NCBI RefSeq assembly: GCF_963676685.1
Contig: NC_092347.1
Coordinates: 72,788,001 to 72,852,000 of the forward strand
Origin: Mytilus edulis
Taxonomy: Eukaryota
Length of the DNA stretch: 64,000 bases
Direction: 5' to 3'
Below, one piece after another: positions 7,401 to 64,000 of the stretch. The notes beneath the pieces are model-generated. The model ran no database searches. It was not told where the DNA came from and saw nothing but the letters and a program-made list of their open reading frames with translations. Within the stretch, counting starts at the first letter, position 1. Every line of letters starts with the position of its first letter. The position numbers and the translations under genes are program-made.

Positions 7401-7909
7401 TGGACACACAAAAGTCCACATGAGCTATTAAAGACATTTGACAAAATTACCCTATGTCGGTTGCAGTCTTGTAATTTACTGCTCCATAGGCTTACATGCA
7501 CAACAGCTGATCTTTGAAAATAAAAAAAATGAAAAATTCTACATAGAAAAAAAAATTCATGTATGTACTTATGTGAAATTGTGATATAATCGGGATAAAA
7601 GTGGGTCAAGCCACGAAGAATAAAAAGTTACACAATCAGGAAGTCAAAACCTTTTTTTTTACTTTCTGTTTGCTGTTTTCACTAGGCCGCACCACTTCCA
7701 GTAAACATGATATCCTTCCACTTTTCTGGATTGATATCCCCAAAAAGATGCTAGATTTTTTAAAAGTCTGTATATTTGTTTCAATCAGCATAAACTTATA
7801 ATCGAACAGAATAAATTGAGTTCAGAAAAAAATGCACTATTTTTTCCCCCAATGTTTTGACATGCACCGGAAACCTGCACCGGAAACTGGAGCTGTGATA
7901 CAAGGACCG

Positions 7910-10900
7910 GTACCTGATACGAGACGTCAGTATTTCTATTAATAGAAACATATATAAATATGATTAAGCGCTGGGCTAAGTACTTCCCGCTTCGATACTT
8001 GATTAAACGGATAGTTAAATTTTCATTCATAAAGTTAAGGTTAGTCTTTCATTTTATCACATTTTACGTGTATATAACATGTGCACATTTATTGTTGCTA
8101 ACACATATACATGACGAAGCATCCATGATCACTTTTTCTATGTTGAGCGAGTGGTTAACATTGTTTACAAACATAGTCCCAAGTGGACAGTGTGATACCT
8201 ACCATTGTTTTCATACCATTTCAAAATTTATAATTTCGTCAAGTTTTATGCTTCAAATTGGAAGTCGGGAGATACCACGACACTGTGGAGAGTTGCCTCA
8301 TTGATAATCACATTTTTACATAGATCAGACTCAATCAAGTAGATAGACAATTTTTAGTATTATTTTGCTTCTTTCCTCGTGACTGTAATCCAATTGTGTA
8401 TACACAGCGGTACGTTTCATTTAATTTATATTCTACCTGTTAACTTATGTTGTCGTACCCGGTCAAACTGTTACATGAGGCATCTGTACATTTTTTCTTT
8501 CTATTTTACATGATAAGCCTTACCTGTCAAAGTATATGTTTGAATGGTCATTTGTTGGTTAGTTATTTTCATAACACAACAGATCTGTAAGAAGACTTTT
8601 AAATTTTCTAAATCAAGACTTTTTTTCAACATTTATTCATATGCAGTCAAAGAAACAACTTTCGAGTTCGTTTCATTTAGATCATCATGATATTATGATT
8701 AATATTAGGGACCATATTATTCGTGCGTTTCGAAGCATCCATTAACACTTCTTTCTATGTTGATCGAGTGGTTAACATTGTCTACAGACATAGTCTCAAG
8801 TGGACAGTGTGTCACCTTCAATTGATTTCATACCATTTCAAAATTTATAATTTCGTCAAGTTTTATGCTTCAAATTGGAAGTCGGCGGATAAAACGACAC
8901 TGTAAATGAATGTACAAAAAATTGGGTCAATAATTTTGAAGTAAAGTAGCGATTTGATCTAGCTGAAAAAAGGTGAAAAATAGTATTTCGGAAGCTGTCA
9001 ATAGAATTCAAGACCTTCTTAATAAACAATTGTTCATATTTTGAATTAGAACTGACGAAGTTGTCTATACTTGTGACATAATTTGTCCAAAAAGTAGTAC
9101 ACCACACGGTAAACATATTATTGTGAAAACGCAGGTGGGATTTGTTAAATTTCCATGTATTGTTTAAAGAAACTAGACTGTACCCTCTGGCCCGTTTATT
9201 TACTACATCATATTGCTATACCCATCATTTATATAACATTCAAATGCACAGTAATTCAGTAAGTGTCAATGCCGAAATTGGGTCATGTGAATATTAGCGG
9301 CCATGCTGCGAGAACTCTCTGTTCTTTTGAATCCCTACGGACGTTTTTATTGAATTGTAGGAAAGGATACGAGACACTAACACAGTGACGTCAGTATTGC
9401 TATAAATAGAACCATATATGAATATCACTGAGTAATTGGCAAAATACTTTACGCTGTGATACTTGATTAAACGGATAGTTAAATTTTCATTTATAAAGTT
9501 AAGGTCAGTTTTCATTTTATCGCATTTAACGTGTATATTACACCTGTATAACATGTGCAAATTAATTGTTGCTAACACATTTACATGACTTATTAACTTT
9601 TATTATCTTTGTTTATTACCGCTGTTTTTATCAATAATTAAGTTCATATTCATTATTGAGACAAAACACTAAATTTGAAAGCCATACGGTAACACATAGT
9701 TGTGAATTTCTTTGCTATTTGGTCTTTTGTGGAGAGTTGCCTCATTGATAATCACATTTTTACATAGATCAGACTCAATCAAGTAGATAAGACAATTTTT
9801 CGTTTTATTTTGCTTCTTCCATCGTGACTGTAACCGAATTGTGTATACACAGCGGTATGATTCATTTAATTTCAATTCTACCTGTTAACTTTTGTTGTCA
9901 TACCCGCTCAAACTGTAACATGAGGCAACTGTACATTTTTCTTTCCATTTTACATAATAAGCCTTACCTGTCAAAGTATATGTTTGAATGGTCATTGGTT
10001 TGTCAGTTATTTTCATCACACAAAAAATCTGTAAGAAGACTTTAACCTATAATGGTTTAATTTTTAAATTGATACTTGGATGGAGAGTTGTCTCATTGGC
10101 ACTCACACCACATCTTCCTATATCTATTTAAAACTTTAACAGTCAAGATTTTTGTCAACATTTATTTATATGTAGTCAAAAAACAACTTTCGAGTTCGTT
10201 TCATTTCGACCATCAAAAAATGATGATTAATATTATGGACCATATTATTCGTGCGTTTCGAAGCATCCATTATCACTTTTTTCTATGTTGAGCGAGTGGT
10301 TAACATTGTCTACAAACATAGTCTCAAGTGGACAGTGTGTCACGTTCAATTGTTTTCACCATTTCAAAATTTATAATTTCGTCAAGTTTTATGCTTCAAA
10401 TTGGAAGTGGACGAATAAAACGACACTGTAAATGCATGTACAAAAAATTGGGTCCATAATTTTGAAGTAAAGCAGTGATTTGATCCAGCTGAAAAAAGGT
10501 GAAAAATAGTATTTCGGAAGCTGTCAATAGAAATCAAGACCTTCTTAATAAACAATTGTTCATATTTAGAATTAGAACTGACGAAGTTGTCTATAATTTT
10601 GACATAATTTGTTTCAAAAGTAGTACACCACACGGTAAACATAATATTGTGAAAACGCAGGTGGGATTTTTTGAATTTTCATGTATTGTTTAAAGAAACT
10701 GCACTACGTAAAGACTGTGCCCTCGCCATGGGGCAAGTTTATTTACTATATCATTTTGATATACTCATCATTTATATAACATTCAAATGCACAGTAATTC
10801 AGTATATGTCAATGCCGAAATTGGGTCATGTGAATATTAGCGGCCATGCTGCGAGAACTTTCTATTCTTTCGAATCCTTACGGACGTTTTTATTAAATTG

Positions 10901-11100
10901 AAAGAAAGGATACGAGACACTAACAGAGTGACGTCAGTGTTGCTATAAAAAGAACCATATATGAATATCATTGAGTAATCAGGAAAGTACTTCACGCTAT
11001 GATACTTGATGTAACGGATAGTTAAATTTTCATTTATAAAGAAAAGGTTAGTCCTTCATTTTATCACATTTTACGTGTATATAACATGTGCAAATTAATT
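7910..11100. repeat. Local tandem segmental duplication with an ~1.45-1.55-kb unit (copies ~8286-9590 and ~9731-11100, plus a partial copy at ~7910-8270)
   Basis: Blocks such as GGAGAGTTGCCTCATTGATAATCACATTTTTACATAGATCAGACTCAATC occur at ~8287 and ~9731. ORFs 8856-9116 and 10382-10642 are near-identical. Each unit contains an inverted relic of the MITE found at 23589-24044. Confidence 0.88.
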
Positions 11101-15576: not shown

Positions 15577-17861
15577 TTTTTATACGACCGCAAAAATTAA
15601 AATTATTTTGGTCGTATATTGGTATCACTATGGCGTCGTCGTCGTGGGCATCCGAAGACTTGTGGTTTTCGCACTATAACTTTAGTATAAGTAAATAGAA
15701 ATCCCTATGGAATTTAAACACAAGGTTTATGACCATAAAAGGAAGGTTGGAATTGATTTTGGAAGTTTTTGTCCCAACATATTAGGAATAAGGGGCCAAA
15801 AAGTGCCCAAATAAGCATTTTCTTGGTTTTCGCACTATCACTTTAGTTTGAGTAAATAGAAATCTATGAAATTTTGACACAAGGTTGATGACCACAAAAG
15901 GAAGGTTGGGATTGATTTTGGAAGTTTTGGTCCCAACAGTTTAGGAATAAGGGGCCAAAAAGGGCCAAAATAAGCATTTTCTTGGTTTTCGCACTATAAC
16001 TTTAGTTTAGGTAAATAGAAATCTATGAAATTTTGACACAAGGTTGATGACCACAAAAGGAAGGTTGGGAATGATTTTGGGAGTTTTGGTCTCAACAGTT
16101 TAGGAATTAAGGGCCAAAAAAGGGCCCAAATAAGCATTATTCTTGGTTTTGGCACAATAACTTTAGTATAAGTAAATAGAGATCAATGAAATTTAAAAAC
16201 AATGTTTATGACCATAAAAAAAAGGTTGGGATTTATTTTGGGAGTTACCGACCGTGCAAGGGCTGTATAGCCAGTCAAGGTCGTTAAAAACTTCTATTTA
16301 TTGTTTTGGTAGTTTTGGTCCCAACAGTTTAGGAATAAGGGGCCCAAAGGGTCCAAAATTAAACTTTATTTGATTTCTTCAAAAATTGAATAATTGAGGT
16401 TCTTTGATATGCCGAATCTTACTGTGTATGTAGATTCTTTATTTTTTGTCCCGTTTTCAAATTGGTCTACATTAAGATCCAAAGGGTCCAAAATTAAACT
16501 AAGTTTGAATTTAACAAAAATTGAATTCTTGGGGTTCTTTGATATGCTGAATCTAAACATGTACTTAGATTTTTGATTATTGGCCCAGTTATCAAGTATG
16601 TCCAAATCGGGGTCCAAAATGAAACTTTGTTTGATTTCAACAAAAATTGAATTCTTTATGTTCTTTGATATGCTGAATCTAAACATGTACTTAGATTTTT
16701 TATTATGGGCCCAGTTTTCAAGTTGGTCCAAATCGTGGTCAAAAATTAGACTTTGTTTGATTTCAACAAAATTGAATCCTTGGGTTTCTTTGATATGCCG
16801 AATCTAAACATGTACTTAGTATTTTTATTACGGGCTAAGTTTTCAAGTTGGTCCAAATCGTAGTCCAAAATTAAACTTTGCTTGATATTAACAAAAATTG
16901 AATCCTTTGGGTTCTTTGATATGCTGAATTTAAACATGTATTTAGATCAAATTGGGGTCCAAAATTCAACTTTGTTTGATTTCGATTTTGTATATATGGG
17001 GGTTCTTTGATATATGCTCAATCTAACCATGTATTTAGATTGTTGATGTTTGGACCCGGTTATCATATTGGTCCACATTGAGGTTTAAAGGGTCAAAAAT
17101 TGAACTTTATTTGATTTCATCAAAAATTGAATTCTTGGGGCTCTTTGATATTCTGAATCTAACCATGTGTTTAGATTTGGGATATTGGACCATGATATAG
17201 GTAATGTCCAATTTAAAATTAAATAAAGGCAACAGTAGTACATGTATACCGCTGTTCAAAACTCATAAATCCATGGGCAAAAAACAAAATCGGGGTGACA
17301 AACTAAAACCGATGGAAACGCATTAAATATAAGAGGAGAACAACGACACAACACTAAAATGTAACACACACAGAAACGGACCAAGCATCAGACAAAATCC
17401 CACGAGAATAACAAATATAACATCAAAACCAAATACATGAATTTGGAATAGACAAGTACCGTGACACGTCTTATCGCAATGTGAATTTACACTCAAAAAT
17501 AAAAGATAACAAACGACGCAACGTCAAAATGTAACACACACAAAAACGAACTATAATATAACAATGGCCATATTCCTGACTTGGTACAGGACATTTTTAA
17601 AGAAAAAAATGGTGGGTTGAACCTGGTTTTGTGGCATGCTAAACCTTCCTCTTTTATGGCCATGTGAAATATAACATCAAAATGACAACACAACACCACA
17701 GGACTACAATATAAAGTTTTTAAGTTTAAGTTCTTAGACCACATTCATTATGTGTCAGAAACCTGTGTTGTATCAAGTTTGAATGCTGTGTCCATACTTG
17801 CCCCAATGTTCAGGGTTCAACTATGCGGTCGTATAAAGCTGCGCCCTGCAGATCATCTGGT
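15577..17861 (+). mobile_element. HINE/DINE-1-like non-autonomous Helentron-type element with internal tandem arrays (~160-bp then ~120-bp units), nested in an older repeat and carrying an insert at ~17220-17710
   Basis: Starts TTTTTATACGACCGCAAAA...GGTCGTATA (subterminal inverted repeat), then a (GTC)n microsatellite, tandem units at 15660-16330 and 16350-17200, and a 3' GC-rich hairpin ending ATCTGGT. The flanks rejoin as AACTGATTTT/ATAGTTCGTT. Confidence 0.7.
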
Positions 17862-20928: not shown

Positions 20929-21188
20929 TGAAACGGGCCCTTTTATTATTTTCAATAACTATTATTATTCTTCTTATTCCGATATTAGTATATTAGAAAT
21001 GAGTCTGTTAGTTTAATTCAAACGCGGATATTTCATCATATTGTACATTGTATTATACTGCATATATGGCAATATGCCAATCAATCCCGAATTAAAGTAA
21101 TACACAAACCATCTCAATTATAAATGGAACTTAATTAATTAAACTTTCAAAATCTTTTGCATAAATTGCTCTCATTTTGTATTTGTAG

Positions 21189-22339
21189 TGTGGAATAACA
21201 AAGGTGGAGCTGGAAAAACTACCCTAACATTTCATCTTTCGACAGAATATGCGATACAAAATCCAAAAGTTAAGGTAGTAATTTTTGATTTGTGTCCACA
21301 AGCGAATATTTCTGCAGCTCTACTTTCGAATAAAGACGAGAAGGACGGAGGATTTAGAGGAGATGATATGGTAAGAGCGATACCAGACGGCAGAAAAGTA
21401 AGTTGTTCTGATATAGATGGAAAAGTCAAGACTTATGACCGAACTGTGAGTGGATATTTGATGGCACAGAACGATATAACAAAAATTAAACATTCCGAGT
21501 TTCTTGTACAACCTGCTCTAGAAGTCCACCCAAATAAATTTATCAGTGAAAATCTTTTTCTTCTTTGTGGAGATCAGTATTTGGAAGTTATTTCTAGAGG
21601 CTTAGATAGCGAGAGGATCCTTCTTAGACCGCAGAGTACAGATGGGCCATGGAAAAAGATTACTTCGTATATGAAAGTATTTAGAGATGAATTGGTTAAA
21701 AGCGATCCCACCAGTAACTACGTGTTTTTCATAGATACCAACCCGAGTTTTTCCTTTTACACGGAACTAGCTATTACGGCTGGAACACGTCTCATCGTTC
21801 CTATAATGTCGGATGATTTTTCCCTTTCTGCCGTGAAATCAATATTTTATTTGTTGTACGGAGTTGAGATTGATAATAAGAGAGATGTACGATATCGTAC
21901 TTGGAAAACCTTCGAATTTTGGGATCGAGCAAATACAGAAAAAATTAAAGTACCACAGATTAGCCTTGTTATAAACAATAAGATTATACCGTATGCTGGC
22001 AGGAGTGCAACAGCAGTTAGCGCCAAGCAACAGGAAATACAGAGGTATTTAGATAGGGTTCGTAGTGAGAGGCCAGAAATATTCGATGTACCGAAAGATA
22101 CCAATACTGCTGAACCTATGGATACCAGTGAATTGGAGTCCAACGTATCTATTTTAGAACTTAAAGACTTTCATTCGATAGCAGTCACATCGCTTCACTT
22201 AGGTTGTCCGTTGTCAAAGCTTCCGAGAAAGATTGAAATTGATGGTGTCAATATTCCAAAACCCACTCAGAATAGAGATGCATATTTGCCTGGTCTTCTT
22301 GCAATTGTAGAAAAGATTAAAAAACTGACAACCTGTTAG
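21189..22339 (+). CDS. ParA/MinD/Soj-family (AAA_31/CbiA-like) P-loop ATPase, second coding exon; full spliced protein about 394 aa
   Basis: Deviant Walker A WNNKGGAGKTT, Walker A' VIFDLCPQAN, Walker B YVFFIDTNPS, then RLIVPIMSDDFS. Preceded by the acceptor TTTTGTATTTGTAG| at 21188. The ORF is uninterrupted. Confidence 0.9.
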
Positions 22340-24044: not shown

Positions 24045-24436
24045 AATATATTTGAAAACGAAAACACAAATATGAATTAGGAATAAAATCATCTTTATTT
24101 AAAGCAAATTCATATCGGAAATAAAATATACATTACAAAATCATATCAGTACTTATTCAATCGTGAATAAATACACACTAGGACATTTATACATACCTTT
24201 TTGCACCAGGTGATAAAACATTATCTTATTAAATGTTTCAGTTTCATGTCTTAAATTTAGATTTATACATTTCAACCTAAAAAAAATAGTGTTATTCTCC
24301 TTGACGTCAAACTGGAATAAAGGACACCCGAATAGTCTTAATTCTAAATTTATTTCCTGCTTATACCAAAATCATACCCATAACAGGTCTTTTTTGTATT
24401 CTTGCAATGTTTTTGTATCAATACACAGTATTATTA

Positions 24437-24546
24437 GTTACATAGTGTGCTAGTAACCTAATACGGTATATATGGGGTCAGTAAATTCCATATGTAATTT
24501 ACTGACCCCATATATACCGTATTAGGTCACTAGCACACTATGTAAC
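24437..24546. repeat. 110-bp near-perfect spacerless palindrome
   Basis: GTTACATAGTGTGCTAGTAACCTAATACGGTATATATGGGGTCAGTAAATTCCAT is followed directly by its reverse complement, with two mismatches. Confidence 0.92.
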
Positions 24547-24764
24547 GAATTTATCTTACCAACTATCTGAACGTGTGAAATTTAGACCTATCAAAATGAG
24601 CAAGTCTTCAATACCGTTAGCATAAAGAAACTACTTCCACTGATCCTACAAAATCAGATACCAACAAAAACAACTTGTTAGGTTTAAGGATGTTCGCTAC
24701 TCTGTTTGAAAATAACAAGCTTTTTAAAAGAATGTTATAAATTGAAAGTGTATAAATAAAGAAA

Positions 24765-54958: not shown

Positions 54959-56442
54959 TGTAACGGTTTCGTTATTTAAATTTATAGGTAGATTGATTTA
55001 CAACCATCACAGTTCTTTTATGAACGGTGGGAGGGCTAAACAATTTTCAAGCATTTACTGGACTTATAGTCGTGAAATCACATCATTATAATGAACTGTG
55101 TCGGGAATGTCAGGATCATATTATTACTCCAACTGAACGTTTATTTTATGTGTAATGTATAAAGAGTTCTTACCTTTACGATTTATTGTTTGCATTCCGT
55201 GGTAGCATCTTAAATTATTCATGTCTATAATTTGGAGTCCCGTTATTTTTTATGTACATTGATTTTCATGTACGACGCTCTGGTATCATATATTGTCGTC
55301 GCCATTATTGTTGACAAATTACGTCACACATTGAACCTTGGGAAAGTGCAGGTGGCATGACGTCACACAAGTGAACGTCAATTCTACTATGTTCTTATAC
55401 AAAATGTGTGTCACGGTGTGTCTTAGTGTGTCGTCCTTGTATATAAATTTGCGACATCTAAGCACTCGGGTTCAGTCTGTTTCGTCTGGGCGCCATTCCT
55501 ACGACTTTCAAATAACTAAAGCTGCTTACATATTTTTGTCTTAAGGTTAGCATATAGGATTATAAATATATAAAAAAGGGTTAAAATAATATTTCTGGAT
55601 ATCATCTACAATTTGTCGGTGACAATAACTTTCATTGATTTCATTTAAGAGAATTATACTGATTCAATACATATCAACACTGCGACACGGTGCCGACACA
55701 CATAAGTGTGTCGTGTTTCTAACAACGTATATAAAGCAGATTTTTTATACATTCTTTATATAAATAAAGATACGAAATTCACTTTTGAAAGTTATATAAT
55801 ACAAGGCGTATTAAAACTAATAGAAGAATAGAATATTGGAATTATTACTCTGAATAGGTTTTTCGTAGTATTTAGGCCTTATAGGACGACACACTTTTAA
55901 AGCAGAGAAATAGTAATAACTCGACACACATACTTATATCATACAAGAGAATATTGTTTTAGACTAAGTAAGGGAATAAATTGTATATTATCATATTATT
56001 TGTTTATTGTCATAGTATTGTTCATAAGAGATATATACTGATACCAGAGCCATTCATTTGCTACCATAGATGTAAATAAGATATCATAAATCTATTTAAG
56101 ACGTATTAATAACTGTTTCTTGGTAATTAATCGACTTATTGTTTATTGTTATAAAAGATCATAATATATTTCACTTCTAGTTAATAAATCGTTAACTTAT
56201 TAAATATCTCCTTATATATGCCATACGTGATTCACTTTATACTATCAACTGTACCTAGAGGCGTTTACGTTCAGGATCATTCCGCTAAGGTTTAATAATA
56301 GGAGTACGTTATTGCCCATCCTCCCTTATAAAACGCTCTAGATCCGTTGATAGGTACACAAAGTTTCTTGGATATAAAATTGTTGTCGTTGAGGAGATTG
56401 TCGCTGATTACATCTCACAGGCAGCAGGTCGGACCCGCTTCA
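54959..56442 (+). repeat. 5' LTR (about 1484 bp)
   Basis: Starts TGTAACGG, identical to 63548. The end is placed at the CA immediately before the PBS; the distal part cannot be compared with the truncated 3' LTR. Confidence 0.88.
55319..55478 (+). promoter_or_regulatory. LTR promoter: three CRE-like sites, three phased GTGTGTC repeats, TATA box and initiator
   Basis: TTACGTCA at 55319, TGACGTCA at 55358, GAACGTCA at 55373; GTGTGTC at 55406, 55416 and 55426; TATATAAA at 55440; TCAGTC at 55472. Confidence 0.7.
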
Positions 56443-56443
56443 A

Positions 56444-56461
56444 TGGTGGCAGCGGTGGGAT
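56444..56461 (+). other. Primer-binding site complementary to the tRNA-Leu 3' end
   Basis: TGGTGGCAGCGGTGGGAT is the reverse complement of ATCCCACCGCTGCCA+CCA, the 3' end of metazoan tRNA-Leu (AAG/TAG type). Confidence 0.9.
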
Positions 56462-56505: not shown

Positions 56506-58062
56506 ATGTATCAAGACCCAGCTGATATGACTACCTTCGACAATGACCGATCACCAACTTTAGACCAAGATATAGACGACACGCGGGCCCAGACGACAGG
56601 ACTCCCCGCACCAGTTAGAGAACGATATATCAATGCAACACCCTCTGGAGAAGTACAGGTGCGGGTTAAGACGAAACCAACTAAACCAAGCCACGTAAGG
56701 AGCTCACTATCAGATATCGGACTTAGCGGATTAAGGAGTGGACACAGTGAGTCGGAAAAAGAACGTTTTGGCGGAGCAGAATTTTCTAGAAACAGAAATG
56801 ATTCTGCATTTGATAGATCAGCGGCATTCATAGCTGATAATCAACGGTTATCCCATGGAAGGAGAGATATATCGTCTGAAATCGGTCCAAATGATAGTAA
56901 ATTTACTTCGGGGCGGGACCCCGCGGACACTCGGGCGTTTGTTCAACGCCATTTGAATATATCTCACGATCCTATATCGTTGGCTATGCCAAGTCGGGCT
57001 ACCACGAGAGAGGAAAGGGTTACCCCATGGAAGATCCGCACTGACACTAGAGCTCCCGATTCTTTTGGAAATCAGGAACGGGAGTTTCCGGACGTTATGT
57101 CAGGGTTTGAGGATAATTTTCTTGGTCGTTGCGACAACCAAGTAGGACGCCAACGTTCCGTATTGACGGACAGACGGAGGGCAGATGATAATATGACATC
57201 ATTGCCGACAAACAGGTACATAAATTCAGCAAGTACGACGCAGAAATACAAGAATCCAACCAATTATGACGGGGAGAGTAGTTGGCAGGACTATCAAGTC
57301 CACTTTGAGATGGTATCTGAGATGAATGGCTGGGACGACACAACAAAAGCTCTTGAATTGGCAACAAGTTTGAGGGGCTCTGCCCAAGCAGTACTGAGTG
57401 ACCTACGACCAGACTTAAGAAGAAGCTACGAACACTTAATAGCGGCTCTTACATCAAGATTCCAGCCAAGTAACCAGTCAGAATTATACCGAGCACAAAT
57501 GAAGAATCAAACTCGTGGGAAGGGACAATCATTGCCAGAACTAGCACAAAGTATCAAAAGGGTTACTAGACTTGCATACCCTACAGCTCCTATTGAGGTA
57601 CGAGAACAACTAGCGCGCGATTGTTTCATGGATTCACTCAACGATCCAGATCTTGAATGGGCAATTTTTCAAGGCAAACCAAAAACCATAGACGATAGTG
57701 TCAGGATAGGGCTAGAATACGAGGCATTTACATCAGGACATAGAAGGAAATACTCAAATAGAGCGCCTCTTATACGCCAAACCACGGGAATTTCTATAAG
57801 TGACTCAGAGGAGTCAGAAGATATGGATAACATCATTGAAAGGTTAGCTAGGATAGAAAAACAGGAAACCAGGAAAAAACCAGCAGGACCTTGTTACTTT
57901 TGTGGAGCAAAAGGTCACATTAAAAGGGAATGCAGAAAATTTCAGGCGTCGCTGGGGCGACAACAAAATAACAATGTTAACCAGAAGGCAAATACTAGAA
58001 CCTACACACAAGGCACACAAACAGCCAATCTTACGGGTGTGTTACCGCCGGGAAACTATTAA
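56506..58062 (+). CDS. gag: Gag (518 aa): disordered N-terminus, capsid region, CCHC zinc knuckle
   Basis: YDGESSWQDYQVHFE..NGW capsid start; CYFCGAKGHIKREC knuckle; position directly after the PBS. Confidence 0.93.
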   Translation: MYQDPADMTTFDNDRSPTLDQDIDDTRAQTTGLPAPVRERYINATPSGEVQVRVKTKPTKPSHVRSSLSDIGLSGLRSGHSESEKERFGGAEFSRNRNDSAFDRSAAFIADNQRLSHGRRDISSEIGPNDSKFTSGRDPADTRAFVQRHLNISHDPISLAMPSRATTREERVTPWKIRTDTRAPDSFGNQEREFPDVMSGFEDNFLGRCDNQVGRQRSVLTDRRRADDNMTSLPTNRYINSASTTQKYKNPTNYDGESSWQDYQVHFEMVSEMNGWDDTTKALELATSLRGSAQAVLSDLRPDLRRSYEHLIAALTSRFQPSNQSELYRAQMKNQTRGKGQSLPELAQSIKRVTRLAYPTAPIEVREQLARDCFMDSLNDPDLEWAIFQGKPKTIDDSVRIGLEYEAFTSGHRRKYSNRAPLIRQTTGISISDSEESEDMDNIIERLARIEKQETRKKPAGPCYFCGAKGHIKRECRKFQASLGRQQNNNVNQKANTRTYTQGTQTANLTGVLPPGNY

Positions 58063-58092
58063 AGGTCGAGGGGGAGGTCCCACCTTTGGCCG
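58050..58092 (+). promoter_or_regulatory. -1 programmed ribosomal frameshift signal (G GGA AAC plus downstream stem-loop)
   Basis: GGGAAAC at 58050-58056 is in the correct X XXY YYZ phase. The -1 frame reads on without a stop into pol (..LLKVEGEVPPLADTF). AAAGGT (58061) can pair with ACCTTT (58082). Confidence 0.85.
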
Positions 58093-61000
58093 ACACTTTC
58101 ATTATTAATGAGGGACCATGTATTGAATTTTCTAATGAACAAATTAAGCATGATAGTTTATATTTAAAAATTAATTTAAATGGAATTTTTGTCAATTGTT
58201 TGATTGATACTGGATCAACAATGTCCATATTACATAGTCGAAAATATTTTTCGATACCAGAATCTCAAAGACCCGTATTGTCTAAATCGGGTGTCCGTTT
58301 AAAATTAGCAAATGGAGACCTCCAGGCAACTATTGGAAAAGCAGAATTTTCCATTACAATAAACGGGAAATGTTTTCAACACATCTTATTGATAGCCGAT
58401 ATTGATACTCCGGCTATTTTGGGATATGATTTACTAAACCGACACAACTGTAAGATTGACCTTGGCAAGGGTACTATAACATTTGGAGGCACTGAGATTG
58501 CATGTCAGAAAGAGTCGCAAATGGCGACTATTTTTAAGGTTACCATTGATGAAAATGTTACATTACCACCTTTTTCGGAATCCATTATAAGAGCAACAAT
58601 AGTAGGAGATTCGAGTCATATTTCTGACGCTATTGTTGAACCAGAAGAGCCAAGTACCGACACGAATTTTCATGTCGCACGATCGGTAGTTGACCCTAGC
58701 AATGGTACAATACCGATGCGTATTGTTAACATGATCGACACAGAATGTGTCATCTACCGACACACCAATCTTGCAACATGTGAGACACTACCATATGGTT
58801 CCTTTCAGTCGGAACCTCCTGAAAGGAGTGAAGTAGTAAGAACTAATATAATTACTACTAATACCGAGGACCCAGAAAAGACTTATTCAATCTTACCTCA
58901 CCACCTTGAGGGTCTTTTCGTGGCAAGTAGTCGTGAGTTGTCCGAAGAGCAGAGAGTGCAGTTGGAACATCTACTGATCCGACACAGCGATGCTTTTGCA
59001 AAATCAAAGAATGATTTGGGTTGTTGTGACCTCATTGAACACACAATTGACACGGGTGATGCCAGGCCTGTTAAACAGAATCCGAGACGTCTTCCTCTGG
59101 CCAAACGGGAGGCAGCAGATCAAGAAATAGACCGGATGCTGGAGGGAGGAATCATCGAGCCTAGTACTAGTCCATGGTCGTCCCCAATCGTACTAGTACC
59201 TAAGAAATCCGACGGCTCTTGGCGCTTCTGCGCGGACTTCAGAAAAATTAACCATTTGACAAAAAAGGACTCGTATCCACTCCCAAGAATAGCAGATTGT
59301 CTGGATGCTCTGAGAGGCGCAAGTTGGTATTCGACCATTGATCTGCAAAGTGGTTATTGGCAGGTAAAGATGGCCGAATCCGACAAAGAAAAGACGAGTA
59401 TTGTCACAACTAAAGGCCTTTTCCAATTTAAAGTAATGCCATTTGGGTTATGCAACGCGGGCGCATGTTTCGAAAGACTCATGGAGTGCGTTCTGTCAGG
59501 GCTGAATTGGCAAATTTGCCTGTTGTATTTGGATGATGTCATAATTTTTGCAGATTCATTTGAAGAGCACCTGTCCCGTTTAGAACAAGTTATATCAAAA
59601 ATCAAAAATGCCAATCTAAAAATCTCACCAAAGAAATGCTCGTTTTTCCAGGAAAAAGTTCATTTCCTTGGTCACGTGGTATCTGAAGAAGGAGTTGCTA
59701 CCGACCCTGATAAGATAGCAGCTATAAAAGAGTGGCCTACCCCTAAAACAGTTCACGAGGTGCGAAGTTTCGTAGGTACCTGCTCTTACTATAGGAGGTA
59801 CATTCGTGGATTCTCTGACATAGCTAGGCCACTTCATAAACTTACGGAAAAAGGGGATCGATTTAAATGGACTCAAGAATGCCAAAAAGCGCTCGATACA
59901 CTGAAGGAATGCCTAATCTCAGCTCCGATACTTGGATATCCGGATATTAGCAAACCTTTCATCTTAGATACCGATGCTAGTGGGTACGGAATTGGGGCAG
60001 TGCTATCCCAAGTAACAGACGAAAAAGAGCAGGTTATAGCATATTTCAGCAAGAGTATGAATAAACCCGAAAGGAACTACTGTGTCACTCGACGGGAGTT
60101 GTTAGCAGTAGTTTTATCCATCAAACATTTCCATCACTATTTGTATGGAGTCCCGTTCCTGGTTAGGACAGATCACGGCGCACTCAATTGGATAATGAAT
60201 TTCAAAAACCCTGAAGGTCAAACCGCGAGATGGTTGGAGATCCTTGCCTCCTATAATTTCACCATTCAACACAGACCTGGCAGGCAACACAATAATGCAG
60301 ATGGACTCTCGCGGCGTCCATGTTCTCCGTGTACATACTGCACCCGTCAAGAAAGTAAGAACAGAGAAAATACGGAGAAAGATGACATTGAACATGTCAG
60401 AGTCGCGAAAGGAGCCACAAAGGAACCTGAAATATTCGATACCGAAGAAGTCGACATAGAAGATAACACGGACAGCTTTGAATGGGTACAGAGTAGAAGC
60501 CTCGTGGAAATCGCAACTGCTCAACAAAACGACACGATTTTGAAGCAATTACGGGAGATGAAAGTGAAAGGTACAGAAAGGCCCAATTGGGAAGATATTT
60601 CTTTTCAAAGCATAACTTTGAAAGTTTATTGGGCCCAATGGAACAAGATAAAATTGGAAAATGGTGTCCTGTATAGGTGTTGGCAATCCAAAGACAAGGG
60701 TGAAATAACCCAGTTAATCTTACCTGACTGTTGGCATGAGGAAGTCATGAAAATGCTGCATGACGATCCACCCGCTGGACATTTTGGCCAACATCGCACC
60801 TTAGCCAGAGTTTCGAGACGATTTTATTGGGCAGGTTACAAGGATTACGTTATACAATGGTGTCGACAATGTAAAACGTGCGAAGCTCGTAAGAAACCCC
60901 AGAAACATTATCAAGGACTTATGAAGCAGTACCTGGTGGGGGCACCATTAGAACGGGTGGCCATTGACATTCTTGGCCCTTTACCCAAAACTCATTCAGG

Positions 61001-61916
61001 TTACCGGTACATCTTAGTTCTCACGGACTATTTCACGCGATGGGCCGAAGCCTACCCTATGATTGGTCTGACCGCTGAAGAAGTTGCTGAAATTTTTGTC
61101 AGTCAATTTGTGTCACGTTTTGGAGTTCCAAAACAGTTGCACACAGATAGAGGAACTCAGTTTGAGTCCAAACTGTTTCAGGATCTATGTTCCAGATTAA
61201 AAATAGACAAGACACGAACAACAGCAATGCATCCACAAAGTGATGGAATGGTAGAGCGGCTAAACAGGACTTTGGAAGATATTTTGAGTAAATACGTAAC
61301 TAAACATCAAAAAGACTGGGATGAACATCTACAGTTAGCTCTCATGGCTTACAGGTCATCCGACCATGAGAGTACAGGGTTTTCGCCCTCCATGTTGATG
61401 TTCGGAAGGGAAATTGAACTTCCCATTGACCTGATTTTTGGATCTTACCCAGATAGTATAGAGACGGACGAGAAATCCGAGAATGATTACCTAAAAGATT
61501 TACGAAAGGGGCTTTGGGACATACACGATGTCGCAAGAGAGAAGATGAAACACGCAAGTGATAGACAAAAACGTCAGTACGACACTAGGGTCCATTCGCG
61601 ACAATACCGTGTCGGTGATGCTGTCTGGATATTCAACCCATTGCGAAGAAAAGGGTTAAGTCCAAAGCTGCAACCACACTGGATAGGCCCTTACATCATT
61701 AGAGAAGTTTATACAGACTTAATTTATAAAATAGCGCGGCAGAACGGATCGAAAGAAATAGTCATCCACCATGACAGGTTGAAACCATATTTCGGTTCTC
61801 TCGATACAGTTCCGGAATCATCGTCTGATGTAATAGATACTGGAGAACCGGAACTTGTTTCGTCGCGTCCTTCGAGACTAAGAAAGAAGCCGAAATATCT
61901 AAACGATTTTGTATAA
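58086..61916 (+). CDS. pol: Pol polyprotein (protease, dUTPase-like relic, RT, RNase H, integrase), expressed as a Gag-Pol fusion
   Basis: LIDTGS protease; IDL, MPFGL and YLDD RT motifs; LDTDAS, RRELLA and RTDH RNase H; HHCC (H..H..C..C), D,D35E and W.GPY integrase. Confidence 0.97.
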   Translation: MADTFIINEGPCIEFSNEQIKHDSLYLKINLNGIFVNCLIDTGSTMSILHSRKYFSIPESQRPVLSKSGVRLKLANGDLQATIGKAEFSITINGKCFQHILLIADIDTPAILGYDLLNRHNCKIDLGKGTITFGGTEIACQKESQMATIFKVTIDENVTLPPFSESIIRATIVGDSSHISDAIVEPEEPSTDTNFHVARSVVDPSNGTIPMRIVNMIDTECVIYRHTNLATCETLPYGSFQSEPPERSEVVRTNIITTNTEDPEKTYSILPHHLEGLFVASSRELSEEQRVQLEHLLIRHSDAFAKSKNDLGCCDLIEHTIDTGDARPVKQNPRRLPLAKREAADQEIDRMLEGGIIEPSTSPWSSPIVLVPKKSDGSWRFCADFRKINHLTKKDSYPLPRIADCLDALRGASWYSTIDLQSGYWQVKMAESDKEKTSIVTTKGLFQFKVMPFGLCNAGACFERLMECVLSGLNWQICLLYLDDVIIFADSFEEHLSRLEQVISKIKNANLKISPKKCSFFQEKVHFLGHVVSEEGVATDPDKIAAIKEWPTPKTVHEVRSFVGTCSYYRRYIRGFSDIARPLHKLTEKGDRFKWTQECQKALDTLKECLISAPILGYPDISKPFILDTDASGYGIGAVLSQVTDEKEQVIAYFSKSMNKPERNYCVTRRELLAVVLSIKHFHHYLYGVPFLVRTDHGALNWIMNFKNPEGQTARWLEILASYNFTIQHRPGRQHNNADGLSRRPCSPCTYCTRQESKNRENTEKDDIEHVRVAKGATKEPEIFDTEEVDIEDNTDSFEWVQSRSLVEIATAQQNDTILKQLREMKVKGTERPNWEDISFQSITLKVYWAQWNKIKLENGVLYRCWQSKDKGEITQLILPDCWHEEVMKMLHDDPPAGHFGQHRTLARVSRRFYWAGYKDYVIQWCRQCKTCEARKKPQKHYQGLMKQYLVGAPLERVAIDILGPLPKTHSGYRYILVLTDYFTRWAEAYPMIGLTAEEVAEIFVSQFVSRFGVPKQLHTDRGTQFESKLFQDLCSRLKIDKTRTTAMHPQSDGMVERLNRTLEDILSKYVTKHQKDWDEHLQLALMAYRSSDHESTGFSPSMLMFGREIELPIDLIFGSYPDSIETDEKSENDYLKDLRKGLWDIHDVAREKMKHASDRQKRQYDTRVHSRQYRVGDAVWIFNPLRRKGLSPKLQPHWIGPYIIREVYTDLIYKIARQNGSKEIVIHHDRLKPYFGSLDTVPESSSDVIDTGEPELVSSRPSRLRKKPKYLNDFV

Positions 61917-62126
61917 TTTAGTAAAAGGGTTAAAAATTAAAGAAAATGTTTCCACAAATAAATAAGGGTTTTATAGTCAAAATTTAGGGTTTTAAGGATT
62001 TTCAAATGGTTGTACAGGGTTGGGGTAGGACTTAAAATATAAAGCTGTCAAAGAAAATCAAATCTGTGGCTCTGGTATCTCCTGTTTGGGTTTTCTCGGA
62101 CTCATGGTTAAATTTTATTTTCCCAG

Positions 62127-63386
62127 ATGTTCACCTGTAATGAGTGTATGAGGAACTATCCCACTCTGGAGAGTCTCAAGAGGCATTTGCGCTATGCGCA
62201 CACAGATAATAGAGTGAAATGTAGATGGTGTCCCTACGACGTATCATCCAATGCCACCTACAGGATGAGGCATCATGAGAAATCCAAACACTGGTACAAG
62301 TTCAAGGATGAAAGTAAGGAAAACCAAAAGACACCCACAAAGAAAATACCATCAGTGGTAAAGAAAGTGGAAAAGAAGAAGAAGAAGAAGAAGCAGAGTT
62401 CAACTAACTCTGAGGCTACAAAATTGCCCTCAGCAGAATGCCCACCACTGAGGGAACCATCACCCATGACAGTGGAATTCGAGGAACTCATGGCCACCAA
62501 ACATACAACCCCTACAGAAGACCTACTGTTCGCGTTACCAGTTATAGCAGTCGCAGAGGTAGAGAATTCAGTAGATAACACTCCCCTTTTGAGTGTTCCG
62601 GAGCTTGTTAAATCAGTCATGCAGGATCAAGAACGAGCCAAGATAGCAACTGATAACATTAAAGAATCAGATGGTTTCGAAATTGAGAAGGGAACAGTAG
62701 TCATGGATGACCAATCAGTACCCGTCAGTGAGGACATCCAAGAGCCAGATGAAACTGTAATTAGTGAGCGACCAGGAGAAGACACAGTGACAGAGGTGAG
62801 GGAGCAATTAGTCGAAGTCACCGAGGACGGCATGGAGGTCATCCAAGAAGATATAAGGGTTGTCGAAATAGATGGGATGACGCCCACGCCCAACTACCTC
62901 CCCTCCAGAATTACTCCCACTCATCTAAAATTTGGAAAAATATATGATTATAGACACTTTGGACTGCCCGAGGAGAAGGACAATGAGGATCCCAGGCAGG
63001 TACTTCTTTGTCCTCCTTCGTCTTATCACTCTTCTAATGAGGCTGTACTATTGAAGAGACTCAGGGAACAGGCTAGGAGAAACAACCTTTCTACTACTAT
63101 TTTGCCAGATGGTTATTCTGGTTTAATCAAAACTGAGAGATGTGAGCTCCCGGATGGAACAGTATATTCACTGACCAGTCACTGGGTGCCAGACATCCCG
63201 GTCCGAAGGTACAAGACAACTGGAGTTCAGGCTTCTACTACGCCCGAAACTCGTGATGAAAATATACAGGTTACTCCAGTAACCACCTTATCGGGAACCC
63301 AAACAGAGGAGATGACAGCAATTGTAAAGAAAACATTCGAGGATAAAGAAAGCAGTTGTGACATTATTGCATGTAGATTTTACTAA
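62127..63386 (+). CDS. ORF3 (419 aa): two C2H2 zinc fingers, poly-Lys NLS, acidic disordered region, TQT-like motifs; not an envelope protein
   Basis: CNEC-x12-H-x4-H and CRWC-x14-H-x4-H; KKVEKKKKKKK; no signal peptide or TM. The acceptor TTTTATTTTCCCAG| lies directly before the ATG, and the ORF sits between pol and the PPT. Confidence 0.88.
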   Translation: MFTCNECMRNYPTLESLKRHLRYAHTDNRVKCRWCPYDVSSNATYRMRHHEKSKHWYKFKDESKENQKTPTKKIPSVVKKVEKKKKKKKQSSTNSEATKLPSAECPPLREPSPMTVEFEELMATKHTTPTEDLLFALPVIAVAEVENSVDNTPLLSVPELVKSVMQDQERAKIATDNIKESDGFEIEKGTVVMDDQSVPVSEDIQEPDETVISERPGEDTVTEVREQLVEVTEDGMEVIQEDIRVVEIDGMTPTPNYLPSRITPTHLKFGKIYDYRHFGLPEEKDNEDPRQVLLCPPSSYHSSNEAVLLKRLREQARRNNLSTTILPDGYSGLIKTERCELPDGTVYSLTSHWVPDIPVRRYKTTGVQASTTPETRDENIQVTPVTTLSGTQTEEMTAIVKKTFEDKESSCDIIACRFY

Positions 63387-63534
63387 TCGTGTTTAAAGAC
63401 ATTAGAACCGAACAATATGTGCATCGAATTCAGTTTTATACCAATAATGTGTTCATTTAGCTATTGTTTTGTTTATATGCTCAATTATTGACTATTGTTG
63501 TTAAATGCGTTCAGTTTGGGGACAAACTAAATTT

Positions 63535-63544
63535 GGTAGGGGGG
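63535..63544 (+). other. Polypurine tract
   Basis: GGTAGGGGGG, 3 nt upstream of the 3' LTR TG. Confidence 0.85.
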
Positions 63545-63547
63545 TAT

Positions 63548-64000
63548 TGTAACGGTTTCGTTATTTAAATTTATAGGTAGATTGATTTACAACCATCACA
63601 GTTCTTTTATGAACGGTGGGAGGGCTAAACAATTTTCAAGCATTTACTGGACTTATAGTCGTGAAATCACATCATTATAATGAACTGTGTCGGGAATGTC
63701 AGGATCATATTATTACTCCAACTGAACGTTTATTTTATGTGTAATGTATAAAGAGTTCTTACCTTTACGATTTATTGTTTGCATTCCGTGGTAGCATCTT
63801 AAATTATTCATGTCTATAATTTGGAGTCCCGTTATTTTTTATGTACATTGATTTTCATGTACGACGCTCTGGTATCAGATATTGTCGTCGCCATTATTGT
63901 TGACAAATTACGTCACACATTGAACCTTGGGAAAGTGCAGGTGGCATGACGTCACACAAGTGAACGTCAATTCTACTATGTTCTTATACAAAATGTGTGT
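63548..64000 (+). repeat. 3' LTR (partial, truncated by the window end)
   Basis: Matches 54959-55411 with one mismatch. Confidence 0.95.

Follow-up and report, generated by a model that had tools for sequence, protein, structure and literature searches.

The usual view is that simple LTR retrotransposons depend on host factors for their transcription. Foamy virus Tas and HTLV Tax are encoded by an accessory gene 3' of pol, are produced from spliced RNA and act on repeats in their own LTR; these are Retroviridae proteins without C2H2 pairs, and Tax works via host CREB, not by reading DNA alone. Element-encoded regulators have also been described in DNA transposons. For VANC of the Arabidopsis VANDAL transposons, ChIP and EMSA experiments demonstrated both binding and demethylation, and its target is a short, dense, family-specific non-coding motif that multiplies as tandem repeats and varies between related families (accessible text of PMC5735166). 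Spm TnpA and the Mutator transposases are sequence-specific activators of cognate copies, encoded by the elements themselves (bioRxiv 10.64898/2026.08.24.746577); the accessible main text of that report does not contain the term 'LTR'.

This study examined a locus with comparable features in a stretch of 64,000 nt of DNA (hereafter, the window). As in VANDAL, an element-encoded protein, here ORF3, accompanies a short, dense, family-specific non-coding motif, and the motifs of related families multiply as tandem repeats and vary from one family to another (compare the accessible text of PMC5735166). The two cases differ in that VANDAL is a plant DNA transposon, whereas the present element is an animal LTR retrotransposon with a C2H2 pair and motifs in both orientations, known from its sequence only. 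Likewise, the activation of cognate copies established for Spm TnpA and Mutator is proposed here, and their activators, unlike ORF3, are transposase-derived helix-turn-helix proteins of DNA transposons (accessible text of bioRxiv 10.64898/2026.08.24.746577). The comparison concerns how these systems work, and we claim kinship of ORF3 with neither protein family.

The features of the element are collected in Table 1. Direct TG...CA LTRs, a primer binding site (PBS) and a polypurine tract (PPT) identify an LTR retrotransposon, and the order protease-RT-RNase H-integrase in pol, after gag, places it in Ty3/Gypsy; Mytilus supplies the closest named proteins, which makes a mussel the probable host. 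The 5' and 3' LTRs differ by one mismatch in 453 comparable nt, and this near-identity therefore indicates a young insertion. In the one raw RNA run among four runs compared, of 24 listed, 3 of 8.7 million reads aligned, showing no splice joint and no start site. The PBS is presumably of the tRNA-Leu type, and we take the Gag type and the primer site to resemble those of Mag-lineage/C-clade Gypsy elements. This group is abundant in molluscs, and the accessible main text of the corresponding study makes no mention of a third or additional ORF or of a zinc finger (PMC6238403).

Table 1. Features of the element in window coordinates.
Feature	Position	Strand	Remark
5' LTR, 1484 bp, TG...CA	54959..56442	+	direct repeat 8589 bp away
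TGACGTCA, candidate host-factor site	55358..55365	+	sequence; occurs also in LTR of relative L005; presumably CRE-like
Phased GTGTGTC triple	55406..55433	+	-68 to -42 of putative start
Putative TATA box TATATAAA	55440..55447	+	starts 7 bp past third phased copy
Inr-like TCAGTC, putative start A55474	55472..55477	+	sole TCAGT in LTR
Putative splice-donor-like site, +72	55546..55551	+	donor-like at +94 in L143, +110 in L016
Inverted pair, 8-bp motif, 4-bp spacer	55694..55713	.	weaker copy 55683-55688; 8-bp hairpin in RNA fold
Motif copy	55887..55894	-	55883-55895 exactly complements 55425-55437 (13 nt)
Motif copy	55922..55929	-	sequence
Primer binding site	56444..56461	+	same site in L016, L017
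gag, 518 aa, CCHC knuckle	56506..58062	+	
pol: protease, RT, RNase H, integrase	57999..61916	+	single open frame
Acceptor-like pyrimidine tract and CAG	62113..62126	+	immediately 5' of ORF3 ATG
ORF3, 419 aa	62127..63386	+	C2H2 fingers 62136-62201, 62220-62291
ORF3 C-terminal conserved domain; TQT motif	~62940-63269; 63297-63305	+	preceded by lysine run and acidic low-confidence middle
Small hairpin and polypurine tract	63513..63544	+	5' of 3' LTR
3' LTR	63548..64000	+	window end falls inside its first motif copy

The relatives used for comparison (L-numbers) are contigs. About 110 of them come from the bin G001, two of whose contigs had matched a pattern scan, and were taken mostly in the listed order of its pol matches; eight other bins contributed about 25 more. 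G001, the bin of L016 and L017, is filed as a bacterial species representative, yet it contains 209 animal-type Gypsy pol matches; within its family, 9 of 380 genomes have such matches, which represent host contamination of the collection. A metagenome pattern scan gave 15 loci, of which five were true relatives, mostly short, as judged by tblastn (four) or by eye (one), and viral-contig scans gave no match. Several primer-site and hairpin details were seen on these contigs. A second partial PBS copy lies near the true site in L005, L016 and L017, about 90 nt upstream in the latter two; one primer-site reading in L005 was rejected, the sequence being a copy within the LTR, and the PBS-like site of L143, about 290 nt before gag, is either the true site or a partial copy. 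The hairpin before the PPT (window 63513-63528) is kept in L001, L005, L009, L015, L016, L017, L025, L143 and L144, with a compensatory change within the window's own copy.

Elsewhere in the window, a 398-codon open frame at 21143-22339 (+), surrounded by repeat-rich animal-type DNA, encodes a ParA/AAA_31 ATPase domain (E 3e-14); most of the Atlas clusters nearest to it are bacterial. A 59-bp perfect-abutting inverted repeat occupies 24433-24550 and a 54-bp inverted repeat 578-736; a 1.5-kb block is present in triplicate at 7900-11100, and 126-159-bp tandem arrays lie at 15700-17200.

The original prediction held that the LTR carries seven GTGTGTC/GACACAC motifs, and all seven were recovered, at 55406, 55416, 55426 and 55706 on the plus strand and at 55695, 55888 and 55923 on the minus strand. 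Its further observations, a 10-bp phase of the copies at 55406, 55416 and 55426 upstream of the TATA box and an inverted pair CGACACAC-ATAA-GTGTGTCG at 55694-55713, agree with the coordinates. GACACAC is the most over-represented 7-mer of the 1484-bp LTR, seven copies standing against 0.12 expected, and in 300 dinucleotide shuffles no 7-mer was as extreme. The remaining 6 of the 13 matches in the window lie outside the LTR, a number near chance (whole-window shuffle mean 5.49). After duplications were masked, the seven copies still gave E 2.7e-6, the strongest value among 45 regions. Since five of the seven copies continue with G, TGTGTCG occurs six times and CGACA 12 times in the LTR against 2.1 expected, (G)TGTGTCG is the better form of the word.

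For seven randomly placed sites, the probability of a triple at exactly 10+10 bp is about 1e-4, and that of an equal spacing of any 7-12 bp is 6e-4. The phased 10-mers have only the 7-bp core in common, and Tandem Repeats Finder did not call the three phased copies as an array. These are the only copies upstream of the putative start, at -68, -58 and -48, and the other four lie downstream, from +220 to +450. Relatives do not conserve the exact 10-bp phase, which was therefore rejected as a family trait, their spacings being 12, 30, 13 and others. A contig from run X15, which aligns with window 55502-55894, represents a diverged subfamily (about 25 changes in 150 bp and a 128-bp skip); its alignment stops exactly at the final base of the 55888 motif, and it differs from the window at weak sites close to 55614 and 55684.

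From spacing, we infer that the promoter lies at 55440-55477: the start of TATAAA stands 32 bp upstream of the Inr-like A, and the spacing is similar in L143 and L015. A second TATA-like site at 55728 was rejected as a promoter, as no Inr-like match stands at the right distance from it.

ORF3 has the Cys2-His2 ligands and recognition helices of two fingers (residues 14-24 and 41-54 in a low-confidence model). Canonical C2H2 fingers have a 12-residue Cys-His spacing and a TGEKP-type linker; finger 2 of ORF3 has 14 residues between Cys and His, and the 6-residue linker is unrelated to the TGEKP type. In Pfam, only C2H2-type models matched ORF3, and no family matched its C-terminal domain. With C2H2-type matches only, ORF3 does not qualify as an envelope or fusion glycoprotein, and this result rules out an env-bearing (errantivirus-like) Gypsy; the ORF3 of L090, in contrast, matches Baculo_F. 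A profile search (E up to 0.001) assembled an ORF3 family of 173 clusters at 50% identity, which includes scallop and Mytilus proteins. Among 171 family proteins, the C-terminal domain of about 90 residues is present in 108, the finger region in 69 and both in 40. The predicted model of full-length ORF3 reached pLDDT 40 and that of the C-terminal domain pLDDT 77; the latter matched no fold with a Z above 2.2, and no usable match came from the Atlas, neither of which is evidence of a new fold.

The tail of the protein carries a recurrent short motif: in 61 of 96 proteins, [TVIS]QT stands after the conserved domain, with 86 occurrences in 6046 tail residues compared with 35 in 16445 upstream residues. 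We take the TQT motif of ORF3 to be of the LC8 type. This assignment is consistent with ASCIZ, which combines zinc fingers with a disordered region of TQT motifs and LC8-driven dimerisation (accessible text of PMC5963919), and in PICTS/Panoramix a silencing factor likewise has a disordered region with TQT motifs, and LC8 drives dimerisation (accessible text of PMC7861614). Unlike ORF3, both are products of host genes, and binding of ORF3 to LC8 would be predicted from its motif only. Descriptions of such an ORF3 or of such LTR sites were not found in searches of the openly accessible literature, including passages of PMC13269885, PMC12440569, PMC6238403, PMC11952523 and PMC4131045.

A finger ORF 3' of pol is common among these contigs of relatives, and accessory ORFs of other kinds were seen as well. 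A TatD DNase domain ends the post-pol ORF in L038, L080 and L088 (Pfam E 1e-34 to 1e-43), and by C-terminal sequence also in L077, L078, L086, L104, L112, L115, L118 and L123; in L088, two C2H2 fingers are fused to it. L050:7326-9092 combines a finger with a BTB domain, and in L100 and L131 the C2H2 pair has no ORF of its own but continues the pol frame at its C-terminal end. L090:6439-8868 is the Baculo_F env-like ORF, with L092 and L107 similar by eye. The pre-gag ORFs of L074, L081 and L102 appear SGNH-like by eye, with no Pfam match in the one scanned.

The relationships of the element were estimated from a FastTree RT tree of the window and contigs only, containing 59 of 103 rows chosen as labelled or at an identity of at least 54%. 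The window's clade comprises 11 rows with an SH-like support of 95; nine have a finger ORF3, and the other two contigs end before its position. L024 was dropped as the closest relative, six relatives having 62-65% RT identity at a node that the tree does not resolve. The case that would have refuted the original prediction, recurrence of the array in related elements lacking ORF3, was not observed: each of 29 other LTR-candidate regions, from related elements both with and without a finger ORF3, contains at most two GTGTGTC. Within the RT clade, the top repeated word differs from LTR to LTR. Significant dispersed words remained after masking of duplications and tandem arrays in 4 of 21 finger-ORF3 elements compared with 3 of 24 others, and on these counts a repeated word was rejected as a marker of finger-ORF3 elements. 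The arrays of L016, L017 and L024 had no score left after masking of duplications. In a sister clade, L028 (oriented 730-1200) carries CGGAGTA in both orientations, with 8 copies of the 7-mer and 10 of the 6-mer; its layout is like the window's, with an inverted pair and words between two TATA-like boxes, and its fingers misfit the word.

Co-variation of the word with the recognition residues of the fingers was examined with the position-specific finger code of Kaplan 2005 (accessible text of PMC1183507, Tables S1-S2). When 18 finger pairs were compared with whole non-coding regions (test 1, leaving out five elements in which two fingers could not be parsed), the result was null (p 0.19), with the window region at rank 8 of 18. 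Test 2 took the top word of each region whose E was < 0.05, which left 10 of 18, and its outcome was marginal, at 0.041 by permutation and 0.059 by the Fisher test. The window fingers predict gGTGnng, for which the best register on the motif is TGTGTCG, at rank 2 of 18 models; for the window alone, the column-shuffle p was 0.17. L028, L095 and L045 were misfits, at ranks 15, 17 and 15 of 18.

Test 3 was limited to the RT clade and to LTRs, a restriction chosen after the data had been viewed, and gave exact permutation p values of 0.0012 (7 pairs), 0.017 (5 lineages) and 0.083 (4 lineages), three sister families being counted once in the latter two versions. Scrambled codes reached the real diagonal in 0/300, 0/1000, 6/1000, 1/1000 and 2/1000 trials for five subsets. 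With the fingers swapped, p was 0.41 (7-pair set, signal gone), 0.26, 0.042, 0.50 and 0.33, the value of 0.042 belonging to a four-lineage subset. Other finger pairs fitted as well or better in 9 of 41 cases for the window model and 14 of 41 for the L024 model. Given the two extra residues in finger 2 and the noncanonical linker, the code may not apply.

The predicted and observed words of the relatives were GAGGTnn and GAGGCTC for L016, GAGGtgC and GAGGAGA for L017, GAGGTaC and GAGGTTC for L027, ctGGnng and ATGGTCG for L024, gGGcAGC and GGCCAGT for L025, and GnGgnGG and GCTATGG for L020. The top-word E exceeded 0.05 in three of the seven pairs (L025, 0.30; L027, 0.087; L020, 0.076), and the L020 pairing depends on a 118-bp match of 97% between L032 and L144. 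The sister families L016, L017 and L027 have an R-D-N-R helix in finger 2, for which the code predicts GAG followed by G; TGAGG is repeated in all three with differing periods and 3' triplets, and counts as one origin. L024 was joined to the LTR contig L143 through an exact 91-bp overlap, and CnGGnnG was predicted for it before the L143 LTR had been viewed, the prediction being recorded only afterwards. Its finger-1 residues -1, 2 and 6 and a GTC-G half-site are in common with the window, and in finger 2 its arginine stands at -1, not 3, with the G of the 5' triplet at the matching position. The top 8-mer of L143 reads ATG-GTC-G, and five GGTCG copies surround a TATA-like box. In L025, four GGCCAG copies end at the TATA box, and five of seven positions are as predicted; word clusters lie at the TATA box in the window, L143 and L025.

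Taken together, these comparisons suggest that the words change in step with the fingers among relatives of the clade, whose families each seem to possess a finger-word pair of their own. Within the RT clade, the proposed co-variation has positive but limited support (p 0.0012-0.083), and the wider finger-ORF3 set gave null or marginal results (p 0.19, 0.04). On this evidence, we lean towards the view that the seven words are sites of the element's own ORF3, which would be a self-encoded regulator with co-evolving sites and probably an activating one.

The words could instead be sites of host transcription factors that set the tissue or stage of expression, with ORF3 serving another purpose, such as a role on RNA or at different loci. 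The candidate host site TGACGTCA in the LTR would fit such a role, as would repeated words in both orientations in elements without a finger ORF3, such as L034. In L143, moreover, the word cluster overlaps a host-type palindrome, a perfect TCTCGCGAGA, which is a known host promoter element that we take to be of the BANP type. However, host factors do not predict that words track fingers across the clade, outside the LTR the window shows no enrichment of the word, and a literature text search on the word named no binding factor, which is a weak argument. We regard this explanation as unlikely, while giving it more weight than the other alternatives.

The copies may also be functionless by-products of reverse transcription, through slippage and template switching. 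Plain tandem repeats that vanish on masking do make up the arrays of L016, L017 and L066, and 13 bp are common to two of the window copies. Against this origin, the window copies survive masking, occur in both orientations over 520 bp and have flanks that mostly differ outside the core, and the TGAGG core stays constant in L016, L017 and L027 despite differing repeat periods; such an origin is improbable. That the words act in RNA, through the hairpin of the inverted pair or through pairing of U5 (55883-55895) with U3 (55425-55437) across the ends of the genomic RNA to aid strand transfer or packaging, agrees with the exact 13-nt complement and the predicted 8-bp hairpin but is very improbable, as shuffled sequences fold just as well as the 5' region (z -0.70) and an RNA role leaves unexplained the phased triple before the TATA box and the single-orientation arrays of L016, L017 and L027.

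Returning to ORF3 as the protein that reads the words, finger 2 would read TGT, finger 1 would read GTC and the +2 residue of finger 1 the next G. Because two fingers read only about 7 bp, specificity is sought in site density, which, probably together with dimerisation via the LC8-type TQT motif, would supply it. ORF3 itself would probably be made from a spliced subgenomic RNA, with a donor near +72 and an acceptor just 5' of the ATG; an acceptor-like site precedes ORF3 in 6 of 11 elements compared with 6 of 82 control stretches, a soft control since these are mostly coding DNA. The protein would then feed back on the LTR promoter. The sequences themselves show that the word is enriched and specific to its family, what family and architecture ORF3 has, and how well fingers and words fit statistically within the clade; we infer binding, splicing, dimerisation and the sign of regulation alike. 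The original prediction called the array an ORF3 operator, and its assignment of the sites to ORF3 accords with the family-specific array and the clade-limited co-variation, while the repression that 'operator' implies is judged the less likely sign. Activation or anti-silencing is modestly favoured over repression because the phased sites lie upstream of the TATA box, not over it, and because the middle of ORF3 is acidic.

On a broader scale, we tentatively consider, as a possibility short of an even chance, that a two-finger C2H2 module was captured by a large lineage of Gypsy elements in marine invertebrates, to which it serves as a transcription factor of their own, and that the families re-programme fingers and LTR sites jointly, so that each gains a private on-switch or a lock against silencing. 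The finger pair would then be a portable label on different effectors, namely the unannotated TQT-tailed domain in the window's ORF3 family, a TatD nuclease in L088 and BTB in L050. Its TQT tail may act by recruiting LC8, which dimerises the transposon-silencing complex of the fly, or by titrating it. If true, this would turn round the common view of host zinc fingers in pursuit of retroelements. A self-encoded, sequence-specific regulator with LTR sites that co-evolve would in itself provide an animal retrotransposon counterpart of VANC, TnpA and the transactivators of complex retroviruses, and the family of 173 clusters would offer many natural finger-site pairs for the study of protein-DNA co-evolution.
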